Numbered from the whole stretch's first letter, positions 16,851-47,034 are shown. The stretch: 63,045 nucleotides of DNA, filler included, from 4 parts of 4 records of this genome joined end to end with filler, not necessarily neighbours in it; one strand, 5' to 3'. The notes: generated by a model not told the origin, from the sequence alone. Numbers and translations are program-made.

Positions 16851-16950
16851 NNNNNNNNNNNNNNNNNNNNNNNNNNNNNNNNNNNNNNNNNNNNTTAATT
16901 AATTAANNNNNNNNNNNNNNNNNNNNNNNNNNNNNNNNNNNNNNNNNNNN
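16851..16950. other. Artificial contig-join spacer
   Basis: 44 N + TTAATTAATTAA (stops in all frames) + 44 N. Confidence 0.99.
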
Positions 16951-17728
16951 GGGCTGGCACATCGAATGCTCGGCGATGATTCACAAGCATCTGGGCGACG
17001 TCATCGACATCCATGGCGGCGGCCAGGACCTGATCTTCCCCCACCATGAAAACGAGATCGCCCAGGGCTGCTGCGCCCACGGCACAGACTACGTCCGTTA
17101 CTGGATGCACAACGGCTACATCAACATCGATGGCGAGAAAATGTCCAAATCCCTGGGCAATTTCCGTCTGGTCCGCGAGTTATTGAAGGAATACCCCGGC
17201 GAGGTGCTGCGTTTCGCGCTGCTCTCCAGCCACTACCGCTCACCGCTGAACTTCTCCGCCGAAGTGCTGGATCAGGCCGGCAAAAGCCTGGACGGCCTCT
17301 ATTACGCCCTGCTGGGACGCGGCGAACAGGTCGAGCCCGATGCCGGCTACCGTCTGCCGGAGGACCACCCGGTGCTGCTGGCTCTGCGCGACGATCTCAA
17401 TACCGCCGAGGCGATCAGCGCCCTGCACGCGGTGGCGGCGAAGCTGAACAAGGCGGAGCTGCCGGAAAAACCGGCGATCAAAGCCGAGTTGCTGGCCGGC
17501 GCCGGACTGTTGGGGCTACTTGAATCCGATCCGGTGGCCTGGTTCCAGAACCAGGGCAGCGCCGATGACGGTCTCGCCAACGACGAGATCGACACCCTGG
17601 TGGCGGAGCGCACCGCGGCCAAGAAAGCCCGCGATTTCGCCCGTGCCGACCAGATCCGCGACCAGCTCAAGGACGCCGGCATCCAACTGGAGGACACCCG
17701 CGAGGGCACTCGCTGGAGCCGGGACTAG
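16951..17728 (+). CDS. cysS: Cysteine--tRNA ligase, 5' truncated
   Basis: [37 protein letters not shown], anticodon domain [14 protein letters not shown]. Confidence 0.97.
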
Positions 17729-17742
17729 GGGTTGACACGCTG

Positions 17743-17882
17743 ACACGCAACACGCTTGCACGCTAAACCCCTGGCTCTGAAACCGTGGTGTGTTTCCTGT
17801 CCTCTGTCAGGAAACACACCATTCCCCTCCGCCACGGGTTTAGCGTGCAAGCGTGTTGCGTGTTGCGTGTTGCGTGTTGCGT
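17743..17882. repeat. Nested inverted-repeat element with (GCGTGTT)x4 tail
   Basis: 28-bp perfect IR 17743-17770 / 17836-17863, inner 14-bp perfect IR 17786-17799 / 17808-17821, and a 7-mer tandem array at 17851-17878. Confidence 0.85.
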
Positions 17883-17962
17883 TCTGCATGTTGCCGCCAA
17901 ATGACAGACAAATGTCATCTTCCTCGGGTATGCTGGCGGGATTCTGATTGGGAGTCGCCACC

Positions 17963-18277
17963 GTGAAACGGGTTTTACTGGCCAGCCTGCGTTTCTACCA
18001 GGGCTATTTAAGCCCCTGGCTGGGCAATCAGTGCCGTTTCTATCCCACTTGCTCCGAGTACGCGCGCCAGGCGGTGGAGCACCATGGTGCCTTGCGCGGC
18101 AGCGCCCTGGCGGCGCGCCGCCTGTGCAAATGCCATCCCTGGCATCCCGGTGGCTTCGATCCGGTGCCGGGCCAGCCGCACCCGCTGCACGGCGACGCGC
18201 AGCATGATACCCCCCAGCAAAATGGCCCCAACACTCATGGCCCCAAAACCCACGGAAAGGACCATGCGTCCCCGTAG
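17963..18277 (+). CDS. yidD: Membrane protein insertion efficiency factor YidD, with His-rich C-terminal tail
   Basis: [51 protein letters not shown] before the GTG at 17963. Confidence 0.9.
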
Positions 18278-18593
18278 CTACAGGGCCTTCCCGGTTCGCC
18301 TCCTGCTACTTTCCCTGCTGTTGATCGCCGGGCAGTGGCAGATGGCGTGGCACAGCACCGAGCATTTGCCGACCGCCACGTCCCTGGCCGGCGGCACTCC
18401 CGACAATGACGGCACCGCCGTCGCCCCCCATTGCCAGCACTGCGCGCCGGTACAGATTGCCGTGCCGCCCGCCACGCTGGTTCAGCATAACCCTCCGGCG
18501 GAGCCATTCTGGCGCCCGCTGGCGCAAAACCGTGGCCATACCCAGGCCGGTCTGCGCGCCTACCTTTCCCGCGCCCCACCTCTGTCCGCCTGA
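18264..18593 (+). CDS. DUF2946/CruR-like leader: signal/TM segment, HCQHC metal motif, C-terminal RAPP putative ribosome-arrest motif
   Basis: [23 protein letters not shown]...WHSTEH...HCQHC...[10 protein letters not shown], 109 aa; AAGGA RBS; directly upstream of a TonB-dependent receptor. Confidence 0.8.
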
Positions 18594-18642
18594 TCTCCGA
18601 TTTCGCCGCCGCCTCAAGCGGTTCGGGTTTCGATAGCGCTTT

Positions 18643-18657
18643 TGTTATGATATAACA
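18643..18657 (+). promoter_or_regulatory. Zur box overlapping an extended -10 element
   Basis: Perfect TGTTAT-GAT-ATAACA palindrome (proteobacterial Zur core); contains TGnTATGAT; 55 nt before a His-rich TBDT. Confidence 0.8.
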
Positions 18658-18712
18658 TTCGCAGCTTGCCAAGGCATGCTCCGCGTGCCTGTTCGATAGA
18701 GGAAAAGAGTCC

Positions 18713-20827
18713 ATGAGACGCAAAGCTTTACCCCTGCCGCTGGCCCTGGGGTTGATGGCCGGTGCCACCCTGGCCGCTCTGCCAGCCTCGGCGCAACAGA
18801 ACGACAACACCGACGACCAAGCGCCCCGGCAACCCTCCCATCAGTTGGATGCGGTCCAGGTGTCCGCGCTGCCTTTTGACGAGGACGCCGCCAGCGGCGC
18901 CTCATCGTTCGGATTGCTGGAGGACAGTCTGCTGTTCCAACGCAGCAACGCCACCCTCGGTAACACGCTGGAAGGATTGCCAGGGGTTCATTCCGACACC
19001 TTCGGCGGTGGCTCCAGCCGCCCGGTGATCCGCGGCCAGGGGGCGCCACGGGTAAGCGTGCTCTCCGATGGCGCCCGTCTGTTCGACGCCTCCGATATCT
19101 CCCCGGACCACGCCACCACGGTGGAGCCCATGCTCGCCCGCAAGGTGGAGGTACTGCGCGGCCCGTCCACCCTGCTCTATGGCGGCGGCGCCATCGGCGG
19201 CGTGGTCAACGTCCTGGACGACAAGATCCCCACCCGCATGCCGGACCGTCCGGTGGAGGGCTTTGTAGCCGTCCGCGGCAATACGGTGGCTAACGAGAAG
19301 GCCGGTGCCGCCGGCATCACCGCCCGCGCCGGCGACCATTTCGCGGTGCACGTGGAAGGCTCACGGCGCCGCGCCGACGACTATGAAGTGAATGGCTTCA
19401 CCGTGCCCGACATCGATGGCACCTACGCCGACAGTGACAATGTCAGTGTCGGCGCTTCCTGGATCGGCGAGCGTGGCTACCTGGGCATGGCGTATTCCTA
19501 CCGCAGCGACATCTACGGTCTGCCCGGCCACAGCCATGAATTCGAGGGCTGCGGCGCCAACGGCGATCAGTTGGAGTGTGACGGGGACGGCCATGACCAT
19601 GATCACGAGCATGGTGCCCACGAAGCGCCCTTCGTCGATCTGGACGCCCGCCGTATTGATCTGCGCGGGGAATACCGGCAGCCGCTGCCCGGCATTGAGA
19701 AGGTCAAGGTGCGTTCCAGCCACACCGACTATCGTCACCATGAAATCGAGGAAGGGGAAGTGGGCACCACTTTCCGTCACAAGGGCTATGAAACCCGGGT
19801 GGAGGCGGAGCACGCGCCGATTGGCGGCTGGCACGGCGTGGTCGGCTTCCAGTACGCCGATCACCAGTTCAACACCCAGGGCACCGAAGCCCTGATGCCA
19901 AAGACCGACACCGAAACCCTTGGGGTATTCGCGGTGGAGCACTACCGCTTCTCCGAACAATGGCATCTGGAAGTGGGCGCCCGCCACGAGCACCAGCGCC
20001 TGGATCCAGTGGAAGATCCGCTCGATCGCCCCTCTTACAGCGATTCCGCCAATTCACTTTCGGCGGCGCTGACCTGGGCCTTCCGGCCGGACTACAACGT
20101 GTCGCTGTCCGCCACCCGCGCCCAGCGCATGCCCCATGCCCAGGAGATGTACGCCCGTGGTGTTCACCTGGCCACCAACACCTATGAGTGCGGTCTGGTT
20201 TCCAGCAGCTACACCTGTGGCGCACCCGGTGACGATTCCGCCATCCATAAGGAAACCTCGCGCAACATTGGCCTTAACCTGCGCAAGATCCGTGGCGACC
20301 TCACCTTTGATATCGGTCTGTTCCACAACCAGGTGGACAACTATATCTACGCCCGCACCCTGGATCAGATCGAGGAATTCCGCCTGATCAAGTACACCCC
20401 GGACGATGTGGAGTTCACTGGCGCGGAAGCGGAGATGCGCTATCAGTGGACCCCACGCTGGTCCACCACGGTATTCGGCGACATCGTCAAGGCCCAGTTC
20501 AGTCGCGGCGGCAACGAGCTGCCACGAATCCCAGCGAAGCGCCTGGGCGGCCGCGTCAACACCTACTGGCGGGCGTTCGACGGTGAGCTGGAGTTCTATC
20601 GGATGTTCCCGCAGAACGACATCGCCGGCTACGAAAGCCGTACTCCCGGCTACGACATGCTCAACGCCACCCTCAGCTACACCCTGGAAGGGGCCCAGCG
20701 CTACAGCGTTTATCTGCGCGGCAGCAACCTGCTGGGCGAGGAAGTGTGGAACCACACCTCCTTCCTGGCCCGCACCGTGCCGGAGCCGGGCCGCAATCTG
20801 ACCGTCGGCATGCGCATGGAATTCTGA
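18713..20827 (+). CDS. TonB-dependent receptor, ZnuD-like zinc/metal uptake
   Basis: Signal peptide, plug motifs SSRPVIRG / SPDHA / EVLRGPSTLLYGGGAIGGVVN, His-rich loop GHSHE...GHDHDHEHGAHE, NHTSFL, terminal Phe. Confidence 0.9.
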   Translation: MRRKALPLPLALGLMAGATLAALPASAQQNDNTDDQAPRQPSHQLDAVQVSALPFDEDAASGASSFGLLEDSLLFQRSNATLGNTLEGLPGVHSDTFGGGSSRPVIRGQGAPRVSVLSDGARLFDASDISPDHATTVEPMLARKVEVLRGPSTLLYGGGAIGGVVNVLDDKIPTRMPDRPVEGFVAVRGNTVANEKAGAAGITARAGDHFAVHVEGSRRRADDYEVNGFTVPDIDGTYADSDNVSVGASWIGERGYLGMAYSYRSDIYGLPGHSHEFEGCGANGDQLECDGDGHDHDHEHGAHEAPFVDLDARRIDLRGEYRQPLPGIEKVKVRSSHTDYRHHEIEEGEVGTTFRHKGYETRVEAEHAPIGGWHGVVGFQYADHQFNTQGTEALMPKTDTETLGVFAVEHYRFSEQWHLEVGARHEHQRLDPVEDPLDRPSYSDSANSLSAALTWAFRPDYNVSLSATRAQRMPHAQEMYARGVHLATNTYECGLVSSSYTCGAPGDDSAIHKETSRNIGLNLRKIRGDLTFDIGLFHNQVDNYIYARTLDQIEEFRLIKYTPDDVEFTGAEAEMRYQWTPRWSTTVFGDIVKAQFSRGGNELPRIPAKRLGGRVNTYWRAFDGELEFYRMFPQNDIAGYESRTPGYDMLNATLSYTLEGAQRYSVYLRGSNLLGEEVWNHTSFLARTVPEPGRNLTVGMRMEF

Positions 20828-20914
20828 GACCGGCCGGGCCCTCAAAGGGCCCGGAGCGCCCCATTACCGAAACGCTATAACGTCATAAAATCGCAACGAA
20901 TTCAGGAACGACAC

Positions 20915-22231
20915 ATGAACAGCTCATTGCACTCCGCCCTGCCCCGCCTCGGCGCCTTGACCCTGGCCCTGCTGCTGGCCGCCTGTAACAACGACACCGG
21001 CAGCACCACCCTGCCCGGCGGCGACGATGATCACGACCATGACCACGAGGAGACGGCCGGCCGTCTGGTGTTCACCCAGGCCGCGGGCAGTAACTCCCGC
21101 GTTTACGTGTACGATCTGGAACAACAGGCCACCATCGCCGATTTCGCTCTGACCTATCCGGCCACGGCACTGCATACCAGCCCCGGCGGCCGTTACGCCG
21201 TGATCATGCAACGTGACAATGATCAGGTGCAGATTCTGGATGGCGGTATCTGGCTGCACGAAGACCATGTCGACACCGGCACTCCCGGGCTCAGCGCCTT
21301 AACACTGCTTGGCGTTAAGCCCACCCATTACCGCGGCAACGACGGCCTCGGCACGGTGTTTTTCGACGGAGACGCCGCCACCGGTTCCCAGTTCCAGCTA
21401 TTCAGTGACAGCAGCCTGGAAAATGACGACGTCATCGCCTCTCACACTCTTGAGCAAGCGCACCACGGCATCGCCGAACCGCGCGGCGAGTGGGTACTGA
21501 GCAGTAACGTCAGCGACGGAGCGAGCGCTGCCGACGGCATCGCGCTGTATCACCTGCACGGCGATCACTTCCATGCCGAGGGCACCCTGGCCACCGCCTG
21601 CCCGGGACTTCATGGCGGCGCCTCCAACACCACCCATTCCGTATTCGGTTGCGAGGATGGTGCACTGGTGGCGGAGCTGCACGGTGACCATTTTCACGAT
21701 CACAAGGTCACCGCACCGGAACGTCTGGCGACAATCCTGGGCAGTCCCGATCTGGCCGATTTCGCCGCCCTCTCCTACCCTGGCTATAACCTCTATCGGA
21801 TAGCGCCGGATGCCACCGAAGCCGAGCAGGTGACGTGGCGCGAGAACACCGCCGCCGACGCCAAACCGCTCGCCTACGGCCTGGACCCGCACGGAGAGCA
21901 TCTGGTGCTGCTCGACGATGCCGGCACCCTGCATGTGATCGATACCGCCGAGTGGCACCACCATGGGCAAATCACCGTATTGGATCAGCCCCCGGCCGAC
22001 GGCGCCCCGGCACCGGCTTTGGCCTTCAGCGGCGACGGCCACGAGGTGTTCGTCTCCGACCCGCGGGCCCAGGCCATCCACCGTGTGGAACTGGAGTCCC
22101 TGACCGTGACCACTGAAGTGGCGGATCTCGGTTTCGCGCCGTTGGGGCTCGCCTGGACCGGTGCCGCCGGAGATCATGATGATCATGGCGAAGGGGAAGA
22201 GGAAGAAGGCGAGCACGACCACGAGCATTAA
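20915..22231 (+). CDS. His-rich beta-propeller lipoprotein, AztD-like metallochaperone
   Basis: Lipobox LLAAC, DDDHDHDHEE at the N-terminus, KPTH, HHGIAEPRG, CPGLHG, FGCEDG, two LHGDHFH, His/Glu-rich C-terminus. Confidence 0.75.
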   Translation: MNSSLHSALPRLGALTLALLLAACNNDTGSTTLPGGDDDHDHDHEETAGRLVFTQAAGSNSRVYVYDLEQQATIADFALTYPATALHTSPGGRYAVIMQRDNDQVQILDGGIWLHEDHVDTGTPGLSALTLLGVKPTHYRGNDGLGTVFFDGDAATGSQFQLFSDSSLENDDVIASHTLEQAHHGIAEPRGEWVLSSNVSDGASAADGIALYHLHGDHFHAEGTLATACPGLHGGASNTTHSVFGCEDGALVAELHGDHFHDHKVTAPERLATILGSPDLADFAALSYPGYNLYRIAPDATEAEQVTWRENTAADAKPLAYGLDPHGEHLVLLDDAGTLHVIDTAEWHHHGQITVLDQPPADGAPAPALAFSGDGHEVFVSDPRAQAIHRVELESLTVTTEVADLGFAPLGLAWTGAAGDHDDHGEGEEEEGEHDHEH

Positions 22232-22296: not shown

Positions 22297-22362
22297 TTCG
22301 CGAGCAAGCTCGCTTCCCGCGGAGGCCACGGAGCCGCCGTGGGAAGCCGCCTCGGCGGCGAA
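22297..22362. repeat. Inverted REP-like doublet
   Basis: Minus-strand GGGAAGCGAGCTTGCTCGCGAA and plus-strand GTGGGAAGCCGCCTCGGCGGCGAA; each is a GGGAA head plus a short palindrome ending CGAA. Confidence 0.6.
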
Positions 22363-22452
22363 TCGGCGTGTTGCGTGTCCAGCCTTTCTTGCGCAGCAAA
22401 CTTCATTACAATGACGGCACTCTATCGTGGTTGTGATGAAAGGATTGTTGTA

Positions 22453-22971
22453 ATGAAGAAAACATGGCTTCTGGCCGTCTGCCTTGTCCTGCCGATGATC
22501 GCCAATGCCAGCGGCTTCGCCGGGTTGGACTACGTGAGCAGCAAAGTGGAACCGGATCGCGGCGGCAGCGCCAAGCCCTCGGCGCTGCAGTTCAAGCTGG
22601 GCACCTGGATCAACCGCACCGAAACCCTGGGCGGCGAAGTACGCATTGGTCTGGGGCTGGATGACGACAGCCTGGGCAATGGCACCAAGGTGGAAATCGA
22701 CCGCCAATACGGCGCCTATTTTCGCGGGCAGTTCCCTAACTCCATGCCGATCCGTCCCTACGGTCTGGTCGGTGTCACCCGGGTGGAAACCACCCATGAC
22801 TATCGCGCCGGCGGCTCCAGTAGCAAGAACTACAGCGATCTATCTCTCGGCTTGGGCGTGGACTTTACCGTCAGCCCCAAGGTTTTTCTGAGTGTGGAGT
22901 ATCTGCGCGCCGTGGACAGCAGTGGCGACGAGGTGAACAACCTGGCGTTCGGCGTCAACGGCCGATTCTGA
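22453..22971 (+). CDS. Small outer-membrane beta-barrel (OmpA-like membrane domain/porin family)
   Basis: Signal peptide MKKTWLLAVC...ANA, alternating strands, PYGLVG, LGLGVDF, terminal Phe. Confidence 0.85.
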   Translation: MKKTWLLAVCLVLPMIANASGFAGLDYVSSKVEPDRGGSAKPSALQFKLGTWINRTETLGGEVRIGLGLDDDSLGNGTKVEIDRQYGAYFRGQFPNSMPIRPYGLVGVTRVETTHDYRAGGSSSKNYSDLSLGLGVDFTVSPKVFLSVEYLRAVDSSGDEVNNLAFGVNGRF

Positions 22972-23047: not shown

Positions 23048-24004
23048 TCACGGAATCGGCAGGTAGCCGCCTTCCACTTCCTTGGTGACGATCGCCACCG
23101 CATTGTGGGCGTGCAGGCTTTCCAGGTGATTCACCCGCAACCAGAAATCGCGGTAGCAGGGTTGAGGATCCAGCGCATGCTTGAGACGGCGCGCCGCGTC
23201 TTCACAGAACATCAGATTCTGGCCATTCAGCAGCGCGAATTCCTGCTCGTCGATACGCTTCACCGCCGTCTGCACCGGCGTCTTCAGCGCCTCTTCGATG
23301 GAGTCGATCAACGCCGTGATCGGGAAGGATTCAGCAGCCTTATCGAGCAGCACCCGAACCTGCGCGATACTGCGCTGGCTATGCGGCGTGGCACGAATGC
23401 CTTCCTCGGTGCCGAGCCACTCGAACACTTCGTCCACATCCACCTTGCCGGACTGAAAGTCCTCGCGGAATTTTTCCTGAATCAACTGACGAGCCAGCGC
23501 CGCGGAACAGGGGCAGGTGGAAGAGTACGGCACTTCCACGTACATCTCGGTGCACAGCCCTTCTTCACCCAGTGACGCCTTGATGCTCACGGTATAGCTC
23601 TTCCAGCCGGCGTAACTGCTCTTGAGCGCCGGGCGGCGCATGGAGTACTCGAAATCGAACTGCACGAAACCACGGGTGCTGAGCCCCTCATGGGTTTCCA
23701 GGAAATTGCCGAGCAGCTGTTCGATGGAAGCCGGGCTCACCGAGTGATCCCCGAAGGTTTCTTCCAGCATCAAATACAGGCGCGACATGTGAATGCCCTT
23801 GGCATCCGGATTGGCCAGATTGACGTAGGCCTGAATGGAGGTACTCACCGGGCGCTCGCCGACCCGGGTATCACTGACCCGTGCGGGCAGGTGAATTTCA
23901 CTCATGCCGACCCAGTCGAGAGTGCCACCGATATGGTCGACCATGGAGTTGGATGCCACATCAGGCATCGCCTTGGTGTTGTCCGCACCGCTTTCGCGCT
24001 TCAT
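23048..24004 (-). CDS. folE2: GTP cyclohydrolase IB (FolE2)
   Basis: [67 protein letters not shown]. The start could be 24004 or the MPDVA Met. Confidence 0.93.
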
Positions 24005-24359
24005 GGAAATCTCCGATAAGGACGGAACGCGGGATGGCGCTAATCGGATGCCGGGACACAGAATGGCGCCCAACGAATCAGCACTGATGGCAATCCGACT
24101 GTCATCGTCCAATCATTCAGGGGCGCAGAGTGTAGCAGAAACCTTCAGCCAAATAGACCTATTGCTGATGTGAAAATAACCGTGAAAAGCCCTGATTACG
24201 GGCCCATGGCCGTACCGGCGCACGGTGAATTACGACACCGATTGGCACCTGAACGGTTATCCCCTTGAAATATAAAGGGAAAAATACAGACATTATGTTG
24301 GCCGAAGCGCCGGCCCACCCCGGCCAACAGTTTTCGCTCATGACACCGACAGCATCGAC

Positions 24360-26967: not shown

Positions 26968-27501
26968 ATGGCCAGACACGACGAAGTGTTGATCGCGTTA
27001 CGACAGATTATTCGCGCCACCGATTTGTACTCCCGGAAGTTGAGCAAGGTCGCCGGTCTTACCGCGCCTCAACTGCTGGTATTGCAGGCGATCGAACCCC
27101 ATGGGGAATTGACCATGGGCGATATCGCCAATGAGGTATCAGTGAGCCAGGCCACGGTCACCACCATTCTTGACCGCCTGGAGAAACGGGGGCTGATCGA
27201 ACGCAAACGTGGCGAACAGGACAAACGCCGCGTTTACGCCTCGCTCACCGGCGAGGGCGTCGCTATTCTAGAGCGAGCCCCCACCCCTCTTCAGGAGGAG
27301 TTCATGGCCCGTTTCGAGCAGCTTCAGGACTGGGAGCAGACGTTGATTCTCAGTTCACTGCAACGGGTCGCCGCGATGATGAACGCAGGCGACATCGACG
27401 CTTCACCGGTACTGGATCTGGGCGCCATCGATCGCGCTCAGCCGGTAACCGAGGAACGCCGGAGCCGCCATCGCACCCCTTCCCAAACCGACCAGAAGTG
27501 A
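26968..27501 (+). CDS. MarR-family regulator of ectoine synthesis (CosR/EctR type)
   Basis: LIALRQIIRATDLYSRKL..GLTAPQL..SQATVTTILDRLEKRG..DKRRV..MMNAGDIDASPVL; immediately upstream of ectA. Confidence 0.88.
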   Translation: MARHDEVLIALRQIIRATDLYSRKLSKVAGLTAPQLLVLQAIEPHGELTMGDIANEVSVSQATVTTILDRLEKRGLIERKRGEQDKRRVYASLTGEGVAILERAPTPLQEEFMARFEQLQDWEQTLILSSLQRVAAMMNAGDIDASPVLDLGAIDRAQPVTEERRSRHRTPSQTDQK

Positions 27502-27505
27502 CACC

Positions 27506-29360
<1,855 letters not shown>

Positions 29361-29425
29361 TCCCACTCGTGCTCCCCCGCCCGGGGGAGCACCTTTCTCC
29401 CCTGCCATACTCTGGAGCTACTTTA

Positions 29426-29824
29426 ATGATCGTACGTACTCTGGCGGAAGCCGAGAAAACCGAACGCCGCGTGGTCGCGGAAAATGGTAACTGGCAGTCC
29501 GTGCGGCTGTCCCTGAAGGAAGATGGCATGGGCCACTCCTTCAACATCACCACTATCTTCAAGGGCACCAAGACCCACATCAAATACGCCAACCACTGGG
29601 AATCGGTGTATGTGATCTCCGGTAAGGGCAAAATCGAGATGGTCGAAAGCGGTGACGTCTACGAGCTGACCCCGGGCACCATCTACTTGCTCGACCAACA
29701 CGACGAGCACTACCTGTACGGTGGCGAAAACGAAGACATGGTCGTGGCCTGCGCTTTCACTCCGCCGCTGAGCGGCAAGGAAGTCCACGACGAAAACGGT
29801 GTTTACCCCGCCGACCTGGACTGA
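29426..29824 (+). CDS. ectC: Ectoine synthase
   Basis: MIVRTL, WQSVRL, YANHWESVY, YLLDQHDEH, FTPPLSGKEVHDENGVYP. Confidence 0.96.
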   Translation: MIVRTLAEAEKTERRVVAENGNWQSVRLSLKEDGMGHSFNITTIFKGTKTHIKYANHWESVYVISGKGKIEMVESGDVYELTPGTIYLLDQHDEHYLYGGENEDMVVACAFTPPLSGKEVHDENGVYPADLD

Positions 29825-38318: not shown

Positions 38319-38418
38319 NNNNNNNNNNNNNNNNNNNNNNNNNNNNNNNNNNNNNNNNNNNNTTAATTAATTAANNNNNNNNNNNNNNNNNNNNNNNNNN
38401 NNNNNNNNNNNNNNNNNN
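38319..38418. other. Artificial contig-join spacer
   Basis: 44 N + TTAATTAATTAA + 44 N. Confidence 0.99.
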
Positions 38419-46934: not shown

Positions 46935-47034
46935 NNNNNNNNNNNNNNNNNNNNNNNNNNNNNNNNNNNNNNNNNNNNTTAATTAATTAANNNNNNNNNN
47001 NNNNNNNNNNNNNNNNNNNNNNNNNNNNNNNNNN
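46935..47034. other. Artificial contig-join spacer
   Basis: 44 N + TTAATTAATTAA + 44 N. Confidence 0.99.

Follow-up and report, generated by a model that had tools for sequence, protein, structure and literature searches.

We analyzed a 63-kb stretch of DNA (the window, on whose full length all positions are counted) in which a short open reading frame (ORF) lies between a yidD paralogue and the gene for a ZnuD-family TonB-dependent receptor. This ORF, hereafter the leader, encodes a candidate arrest peptide of the class represented by CruR and CutF. Its frame runs from an ATG at 18264 to a TGA at 18591-18593, nested within a 169-aa ORF call (18084-18593), and a Shine-Dalgarno sequence, AAAGGA, stands 5 nt before the ATG. 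The 109-aa product begins with basic residues (MRPRSYRAF) followed by a Leu-rich hydrophobic run, carries an HxxxH motif (HSTEH, residues 30-34) and a CxxC motif (CQHC, residues 57-60) with H56 directly before it, and ends in RAPP (residues 103-106), LSA, and the stop; the receptor ATG, at 18713, follows the stop after 119 nt. A preliminary description of the window had listed these same features (a 109-aa ORF within a longer call, a hydrophobic N-terminus, HxxxH, HCQHC, RAPP three residues before the stop, and a His-rich receptor 119 nt away), and all of them were found as described. The G+C content at third codon positions of the leader is 0.79, similar to that of the adjoining genes. By itself, a RAPP close to the end of an open frame carries no significance (one observed against a simulated mean of 0.4, with at least one in 32 of 100 simulations), but the combination of CxxC, 40-47 residues, RAPP, 0-6 residues, and a stop occurs once in the window and in none of 200 simulations.

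The locus is conserved across the Alcanivorax clade. A genome scan yielded 5 loci out of 52 pattern matches, and 4 were real: Alloalcanivorax xenomutans JC109 (L001), A. balearicus (L002), Alcanivorax xiamenensis (L003), and an Alcanivorax metagenome-assembled genome (L004), with leaders 100%, 89%, 90%, and 35% identical to that of the window, respectively. The window most likely comes from A. xenomutans or a very closely related organism. The remaining locus, L005 from Bradyrhizobium, has an off-frame HCQHCAP within a transporter gene on the other strand and was dropped as a chance match. The order cysS, yidD, leader, Zur box, receptor, AztD-like gene, and beta-barrel gene is kept in all four loci, and folE2 comes next in three of them, the L004 contig ending just past the beta-barrel gene. 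Against adjoining genes at 70-83% identity, the L004 leader is far more diverged, and still the sequences all agree at G23-Q24-W25-Q26, W29-H30, H34, H56-C57, and R103-A104-P105-P106. When L002-L004 are aligned with the window as DNA, all indels have lengths divisible by 3. The check proposed in the preliminary description, conservation of the ORF and its RAPP in Alcanivorax orthologues, thus came out positive in four clade genomes and down to 35% identity. The N-terminal extension of the 169-aa call is not conserved (the longest ATG forms in the relatives are 169, 169, 141, and 123 aa) and overlaps yidD in another frame. Ratios of nonsynonymous to synonymous substitution rates (dN/dS) were 0.84, 0.53, and 0.51 for the leader vs 0.035, 0.028, and 0.25 for the receptor, the pattern that would be expected of a peptide constrained at few residues only. 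An AlphaFold model built on a 27-sequence alignment has a confident helix at residues 8-33 and a disordered remainder (mean predicted local distance difference test [pLDDT] 67.3, predicted template modeling score 0.32; 10-residue block mean pLDDT 97 and 91 across residues 11-30), and a folded metal site is absent from it.

To assign the leader to a family, the preliminary description had proposed a search with the DUF2946 hidden Markov model. That search did not bear the assignment out directly: PF11162 (DUF2946; gathering score 23.7 bits) was silent on the window ORF, in its 109-aa and 169-aa forms alike, even at E ≤ 10, and homology was visible by profile-profile comparison only. No NCBIfam model matched the leader. 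Leader relatives gave PF11162 scores below threshold (14.4 bits, E 0.068, for P0004 and 8.5 bits for P0003), and the A. balearicus orthologue bears the UniRef label "DUF2946 domain-containing." The close leader subfamily is tiny, because an exhaustive phmmer search of 1.84 billion representatives returned just 3 clusters at E ≤ 0.001. With a profile from 4 subfamily sequences, 31 weak matches were obtained (E 1e-4 to 0.9); a hydrophobic N-terminus, CxxC, and SRAPP at 2-6 residues from the C-terminus are common to all 31, and HxxxH is lacking in only two. Twenty-two of them were aligned (P0006, P0009, P0019, P0022, P0023, P0025, P0026, P0029, and P0034 were omitted as near-duplicates or over-long), and 9 of the 22 match PF11162 at E ≤ 0.01. 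Comparison of the subfamily with these 22 sequences by hhalign gave a probability of 98.5% (E 1.9e-15, 102 columns). We conclude that the leader, judged by these comparisons, is best placed as a divergent member of the DUF2946-like superfamily that contains CruR and CutF, with no certified Pfam membership. It is a real gene, encoding a short, exported, mostly disordered peptide of this class.

The metal-ligand motif of the leader departs from that of its relatives, and its position relative to RAPP, in the register favored below, does not. RAPP is invariant in all 27 sequences aligned with MAFFT. Among the 31 weak matches, the spacing from the Cys motif to RAPP is 45 residues in 22, 44 in 4, and 46 in 4, and 44 by eye in P0017; the CxxC-RAPP separation is given as 45 residues for CruR and as 45 ± 1-2 for the family (PMC9426467). 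The window leader has RAPP 42 residues from C60 and 45 from C57. In the MAFFT alignment the C-terminal halves are gapless and C57 stands in the column of the canonical second Cys, which makes C57-R103 exactly 45. We favor this gapless register because H56-C57 is invariant in the subfamily, whereas C60 is Phe in P0003, where the motif reads HCDHF; the canonical Cys pair therefore appears dispensable in the leader subfamily. Conservation of CxxC, another check put forward in the preliminary description, was thus found in part, with C57 and the neighboring H56 retained throughout and the second Cys replaced in P0003. The ligand set of the subfamily so appears to be H-C-x-[H/D]-[C/F] plus the shared H30/H34. 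Mixed His/Cys/Asp coordination suits Zn(II) better than Cu(I), and by textbook coordination chemistry this set would point to zinc.

Table 1. Positions of the leader, its motifs, and the surrounding genes and RNA features in the window
Feature	Position	Strand	Basis or remark
yidD paralogue, His-rich C-terminal tail, 104 aa from GTG 17963 (ORF call begins at TTG 17948)	17963..18277	+	Pfam YidD E 1.4e-30, TIGR00278
Leader ORF, 109 aa, DUF2946-like (CruR/CutF-like) RAPP arrest-peptide candidate	18264..18593	+	ORF call, conservation, profile comparison
N-terminal hydrophobic helix, residues 8-33 (export signal or signal anchor)	18285..18362	+	AlphaFold; ends in conserved W29-H30...H34
H56-C57-Q58-H59-C60, candidate metal-ligand cluster	18429..18443	+	H56 and C57 invariant; C57 45 residues before R103
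C-rich, G-poor tract, candidate Rho loading (Rho utilization, rut) region: last 75 nt of leader and first 46 nt of spacer	18520..18639	+	GC skew -0.31 to -0.39
R103-A104-P105-P106 (CGC GCC CCA CCT), predicted arrest site, P105 in P site and P106 in A site	18570..18581	+	Analogy with CruR toeprint (PMC12992588)
CCUCUGUC, codons P106-L107-S108, predicted to pair with receptor Shine-Dalgarno	18579..18586	+	RNA folding
Zur-box palindrome TGTTATGATATAACA	18643-18657		Pattern search; left half TGTTATGAT readable as extended -10
GAUAGAGG, receptor Shine-Dalgarno region, 3' arm of predicted long-range helix	18695..18702	+	RNA folding
ZnuD-family TonB-dependent receptor, 704 aa, His/Asp/Cys-rich loop	18713..20827	+	Plug and beta-barrel domains; PDB 4RDR
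AztD-like lipoprotein (lipobox LLAAC), His/Asp-rich N- and C-terminal tails	20915..22231	+	NCBIfam AztD 92 bits (cut-off 400); PDB 6CMK E 1.3e-14
Small outer-membrane beta-barrel protein, true start probably internal	22339..22971	+	Pfam OMP_b-brl; syntenic in 4/4 loci
folE2 (zinc-independent GTP cyclohydrolase I), convergent with cluster	23048..24112	-	Pfam/NCBIfam

The genes downstream of the leader are of a zinc type, as the preliminary description had held on the strength of ZnuD-like and AztD-like genes and a Zur box; folE2 also lies close to the cluster (Table 1). The best solved relative of the receptor is Neisseria ZnuD (PDB 4RDR, E 1.4e-107, two stretches covering residues 73-704). With 675.6 bits against the NCBIfam ZnuD model NF038289, it falls under the 950-bit cut-off, and it scores 51 bits against the TonB-copper receptor model (cut-off 472); by these comparisons it is taken to be a relative within the ZnuD family and no certified equivalog. 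The AztD-like protein, a predicted lipoprotein, carries His/Asp-rich stretches near its N-terminus (DDDHDHDHEE) and at its C-terminus (DHDDHGEGEEEEGEHDHEH). The copper-handling genes of DUF2946 loci (OprC/CrtA transporters, PepSY_TM, PCuAC, Sco, YcnI, and CopC) are not downstream of the leader, their place being taken by the ZnuD homologue, the AztD-like gene, and the beta-barrel gene. While folE2 is a classic Zur-regulon gene, no recognizable Zur box was present within 248 nt upstream of it (region 23048-24359). Just past the zinc cluster, at 26968-29824, are a gene for a MarR-type regulator and then ectA, ectB, and ectC for ectoine synthesis.

The Zur box in the leader-receptor spacer is a perfect palindrome, the sole one of its pattern in 63 kb (shuffles mean 0.13), and occupies the equivalent position in each of the four loci, L004 differing by one change. 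No second Zur box was found in the window, upstream of yidD and folE2 included, and the next best 19-mer has 6 mismatches. The Zur box of Caulobacter znuG, given as ATTGTTATGATATAACATC, contains the 15-mer of the window (PMC4176598). Recognition of TGTTATGAT as an extended -10 element was by eye, against the textbook consensus. As a rule Zur boxes overlap promoters, and one in the spacer makes a separate, Zur-repressed promoter for the receptor probable; with such a promoter inside the spacer the leader can act on read-through transcripts only. The preliminary description had proposed a leader layered on Zur control; a Zur box is indeed present, and its position downstream of the leader would confine any such layering to read-through RNA.

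Two features near the end of the leader would fit control of the receptor in cis on read-through RNA. Leader codons 106-108 are predicted to pair with the receptor Shine-Dalgarno region through a long-range helix (18579-18586/18695-18702), with pair probabilities of 0.88-1.00 in six transcript windows of 200-850 nt, and this helix appears in both minimum free energy and centroid structures. The probability of being unpaired is 0.003 for the receptor Shine-Dalgarno core vs 0.42 ± 0.13 with the leader part shuffled, a value as low arising in 1 of 150 shuffles. The Shine-Dalgarno of L002 is likewise predicted to be masked (0 of 100 shuffles as low). For transcripts starting at 18655-18665, it is 0.41-0.57 unpaired. 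The other feature is the C-rich tract: a GC skew of -0.39 or below is seen in 0.45% of 3122 80-nt windows, and the C/G ratio of the tract is 1.63-1.69 in all four loci, the diverged L004 included. In this the tract is similar to the rut region attributed to cruR, whose 3' end also has C in excess of G (PMC9426467). No intrinsic terminator was found on the + strand in a scan of 17600-21100, in which the one terminator-like site was on the minus strand, inside the receptor gene.

Upstream, the yidD stop overlaps the leader start by 14 nt in the window, L002, and L003 and by 17 nt in L004, and at the position equivalent to the window's GTG the JC109 gene begins with ATG. After its conserved GGFDP, YidD has 7 His in the window, 3 in L002, 6 in L003, and 2 in L004. 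The usual setting of yidD is rnpA-yidD-yidC; the window yidD lies outside it and comes after cysS. A literature search linking yidD with Zur returned nothing relevant. As for cysS, the possibility of a Zur-regulated paralogue was set aside: judged by eye, the JC109 protein has its Zn-ligand contexts in the usual form, and the gene lacks a preceding Zur box, so that it was treated as housekeeping. The cysS-yidD interval holds a nested hairpin (17743-17863; 33-nt arms 97% complementary and inner 14-nt arms), REP-like or terminator-like in character, to which the only matches in an Rfam scan of 17600-18900, sub-threshold miRNA-precursor ones, were made. After it comes a short run of 7-nt tandem repeats (17858-17882). 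A palindrome, ATGACA-N6-TGTCAT, is at 17901-17918, just upstream of a -10-like TATGCT before yidD; identical in the window, L002, and L003 and absent from L004, it is a possible operator of the yidD-leader unit. Where the window has only 220 nt between cysS and yidD, JC109 has a 365-aa ORF (L001 4529-5626) that by eye is IS605-family TnpB-like, with C-terminal Cys pairs. The window also contains three pairs of masked 44-nt N runs (16851-16950, 38319-38418, and 46935-47034), the first of which interrupts cysS and an opposite-strand gene.

From these features we infer how the leader could control the receptor, including the arrest itself, the metal, read-through, a part for Rho, and the direction of control. 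It would be translated as the second cistron of a yidD-leader transcript, and the ribosome would pause at R103-A104-P105-P106. At the pause, H56-C57, with H59/C60, would lie 45-47 residues back, just outside the exit tunnel, while the N-terminal helix would be engaged by the membrane-targeting machinery. The paused ribosome would occupy codons 106-108, the 5' arm of the Shine-Dalgarno helix, and also the center of the C-rich tract where Rho could load, and during the stall read-through RNA would be extended and translated to give the ZnuD-like receptor and the AztD-like protein. Metal bound to the nascent His/Cys cluster would release the pause; the ribosome would then terminate, the helix would reform, Rho would gain access, and the read-through message would be silenced. 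Release by metal would, for an uptake system, have the same sign as control by CruR and by Zur. Zinc is the favored metal in view of the cargo and the His-enriched motif, and the leader would provide a second, post-transcriptional input beside the main switch, Zur at its own promoter within the spacer. We consider it rather probable that the leader is a cis-acting arrest leader, whatever metal it reads. The explanation as a whole, a zinc-favored arrest leader acting on read-through transcripts beside Zur, is put forward tentatively, and zinc as the metal sensed is, if anything, slightly more doubtful; what would set zinc above copper is the cargo context and the changed ligand motif. We think it unlikely that the locus goes further and forms a Zur-independent, envelope-facing zinc switch for the ZnuD/AztD uptake operon, in which a copper-type CxxC has been remodeled to His-Cys-x-His/Asp held exactly 45 residues from RAPP, the co-translated, His-tailed YidD paralogue positions or metal-loads the emerging chain at the membrane, and the stall has two outputs, Shine-Dalgarno unmasking and a block to Rho. 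If that were true, zinc sensing by an arrest peptide would have its first demonstrated case, and YidD would for the first time be tied functionally to such a peptide.

A number of results weigh against control of the receptor by a zinc-reading arrest leader. Neither form of the leader matches PF11162, and the hhalign score that places it near the family is inflated because the 22 sequences were picked from matches to the query profile. If CQHC is read as the CxxC, the spacing of 42 falls outside the reported 45 ± 1-2; hhalign does pair CQHC with CxxC, opening a 3-residue gap, in disagreement with the MAFFT register. Nothing in the sequence tells zinc binding from copper binding. The leader follows yidD as a second cistron, whereas a systematic first place in operons is reported for cruR homologues. 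The masking helix is not clearly kept in L004, where the Shine-Dalgarno has a probability of 0.14 of being unpaired vs a shuffle mean of 0.15, mostly through local pairing, and only 0.37 of its pairing goes to the footprint region; the three helix-bearing genomes count as one observation because they are nearly identical in this stretch. As a whole, the 191-nt region folds no more stably than shuffles (z -0.48), and a Pro/Ala-rich coding sequence is C-rich regardless of any role for Rho. The Zur box sits between leader and receptor in all four loci, and the receptor may be made mainly from a leader-less transcript. Nothing else sets the locus apart from CruR as much as this box in the spacer, which is also the chief ground for caution on control in cis. 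A promoter scan of 17600-21100 found no sigma-70 site, leaving both the yidD and the Zur-box promoter without independent prediction.

Three other explanations can be set against the arrest leader proposed here. That the leader is a chance open frame in GC-rich DNA and no gene at all can be regarded as effectively excluded: roughly one simulated window in three does contain a RAPP near the end of an open frame, and Pfam and NCBIfam do leave the leader without a match, but the full motif pattern never arose in simulation, the frame, motifs, and indels in threes are conserved across four genomes, the profile-profile probability is high, and NCBI annotates the protein in relatives. A more serious contender is a leader without regulatory effect on the receptor, the Zur-box promoter alone driving the latter, the yidD-leader pair forming a unit apart, and the peptide being a relic of an ancestral module of cruR and receptor, a short-lived metal-binding peptide of the envelope, or a YidD client or monitor. 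The constant place of the Zur box within the spacer agrees with this, as do the accessible Shine-Dalgarno of the short transcript, the translational coupling of the leader to yidD and not to the receptor, its high dN/dS (0.51-0.84), and the doubtful helix in L004. However, a relic would hardly be expected to retain, down to 35% identity, RAPP and its distance from the stop, H56-C57, and the 45-residue register; the leader-spacer-receptor order is also constant in the four loci, the bias in C/G is maintained, pairing with the Shine-Dalgarno is specific, and RAPP upstream ORFs (uORFs) before TonB-dependent receptors are reported as a widespread class (PMC12992588). On balance we judge an absence of control in cis to be somewhat improbable.

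The same arrest leader might instead sense copper, as CruR does, and shut read-through expression of the receptor at high copper, for example to keep copper out of a His-rich zinc gate, with Zur handling zinc. Every characterized relative responds to copper, the window peptide retains a CxxC (CQHC) and shares HxxxH with canonical members, and 9 of the 22 related sequences match DUF2946. Yet the cluster has no copper genes and its cargo is of the zinc type, the invariant pair is His-Cys, P0003 lacking the second Cys of CQHC, and CutF-like proteins have been argued not all to be copper-specific (PMC9973294). We judge copper sensing to be an improbable role for this leader.

The novelty of the locus is partial. 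One genome with a listed relative is NC_018691.1, presumably that of Alcanivorax dieselolei B5. The 2025 supplementary list of RAPP uORFs in PMC12992588 includes the leader family, among the rows listed, as row 1351, WP_014993259.1 (NC_018691.1), and row 7774, WP_133491875.1, both with the downstream product "TonB-dependent receptor"; the same list holds a second, different RAPP-leader family, which is apparently undiscussed. Zinc is mentioned nowhere in the main text of PMC12992588 or PMC9426467, Alcanivorax is missing from Table S1 of the latter, and Alcanivorax, Alloalcanivorax, ZnuD, and zinc are absent from the supplementary text files of PMC9973294. Literature searches found no paper combining arrest peptide, zinc, and TonB, and searches for Zur with TonB-dependent and RAPP, for CutF with zinc, and for zinc-regulated TonB-dependent receptors or upstream ORFs gave nothing relevant. 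No description was found of the spacer Zur box, the yidD coupling, or the shifted ligand motif, for which only literature on yidD with Zur was searched. The preliminary description had regarded the combination as not known to be characterized; it is indeed neither discussed nor tested in the literature searched, whereas the family was already on the 2025 list. As far as our searches reach, the leader-receptor association is visible in public tables and has been neither discussed nor tested.

Metal-sensing arrest peptides, CruR and CutF, have so far been shown for copper only. The locus is a natural test of whether a nascent-chain device can be retuned to another metal, having the same register and RAPP with different ligands and zinc cargo under a Zur box. 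With a transcription-factor operator and a candidate translational sensor in series on one 119-nt spacer, integration of a cytoplasmic (Zur) signal with a nascent-chain signal becomes testable. Should the leader prove copper-responsive or inert, it would be one more member of a class cataloged in 2025.

Among known systems, Zur-repressed receptors of the ZnuD type (Neisseria ZnuD, 4RDR; Caulobacter znuK/znuG) share with the window a ZnuD homologue with a His-rich loop and a Zur palindrome; the Zur-regulon literature consulted describes no RAPP leader before such a receptor, although the Caulobacter DUF2946 genes CC1775 and CC2720, in other operons, respond to zur deletion (PMC4176598). More remote are SecM-secA and ApdA/ApdP, where, as proposed here, a C-terminal arrest motif (RAGP or RAPP) ends an exported leader and the stalled ribosome exposes a downstream Shine-Dalgarno (PMC9426467; PMC12992588). 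SecM and ApdA/ApdP monitor protein export and precede sec or yidC, whereas the window leader precedes a metal receptor and has the export-related yidD upstream. Some of these details of SecM are general background.

The closest system is CruR (Bp2923 of Bordetella pertussis, before BfrG/CrtA). What the preliminary description had stated on CruR, CutF, and RAPP agrees with the papers (PMC9426467; PMC12992588; PMC9973294). An established class of RAPP uORFs carries export signals and precedes TonB-dependent receptors (PMC9426467; PMC12992588), and DUF2946 members are reported to have an export signal in >95% and RAPP 2-6 residues from the C-terminus. Control by CruR depends on RAPP, and its arrest has been shown in vitro with the E. 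coli PURE system, the stalled ribosome holding one Pro codon of RAPP in its P site and the next in its A site (PMC12992588). Both CruR and the window leader are small exported peptides with a hydrophobic N-terminal signal, a predicted disordered body, a RAPP that three residues separate from the C-terminus, a Cys ligand that (for the window leader, in the register favored here) precedes RAPP by 45 residues, and a 3' region with C in excess of G, and both are separated by a long spacer from a TonB-dependent transporter (162 nt for CruR and 119 nt for the window leader). The window leader differs in failing the PF11162 threshold, in a motif of H-C-x-[HD]-[CF] in place of an invariant CxxC, and in being a second cistron after yidD; its spacer holds a Zur box and probably a promoter, its transporter belongs to the ZnuD family and not to CrtA or OprC, and PepSY_TM and copper genes are missing. 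The predicted Shine-Dalgarno-masking helix is a further difference, none being described for CruR in the parts of PMC9426467 and PMC12992588 consulted.

For that helix the parallel is CutF of Rhodobacter capsulatus (cutFOG), also an exported DUF2946-like nascent sensor, in which a paused ribosome unmasks the Shine-Dalgarno, the C-terminal pause melting RNA that hides the ribosome-binding site (PMC9973294; bioRxiv 10.1101/2025.02.05.636593); the helix at the window locus would work likewise. For CutF-like proteins that are not copper-specific, nickel and cobalt contexts are cited (PMC9973294). In CutF itself the motifs are CxxxC and a proline-rich one, the spacer is short, and the stem-loop is local; copper induces its stalling and turns on a detoxifying oxidase. 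The window leader, by comparison, would combine a long-range pairing (about 110 nt) with uptake cargo and a pause that metal is expected to release.

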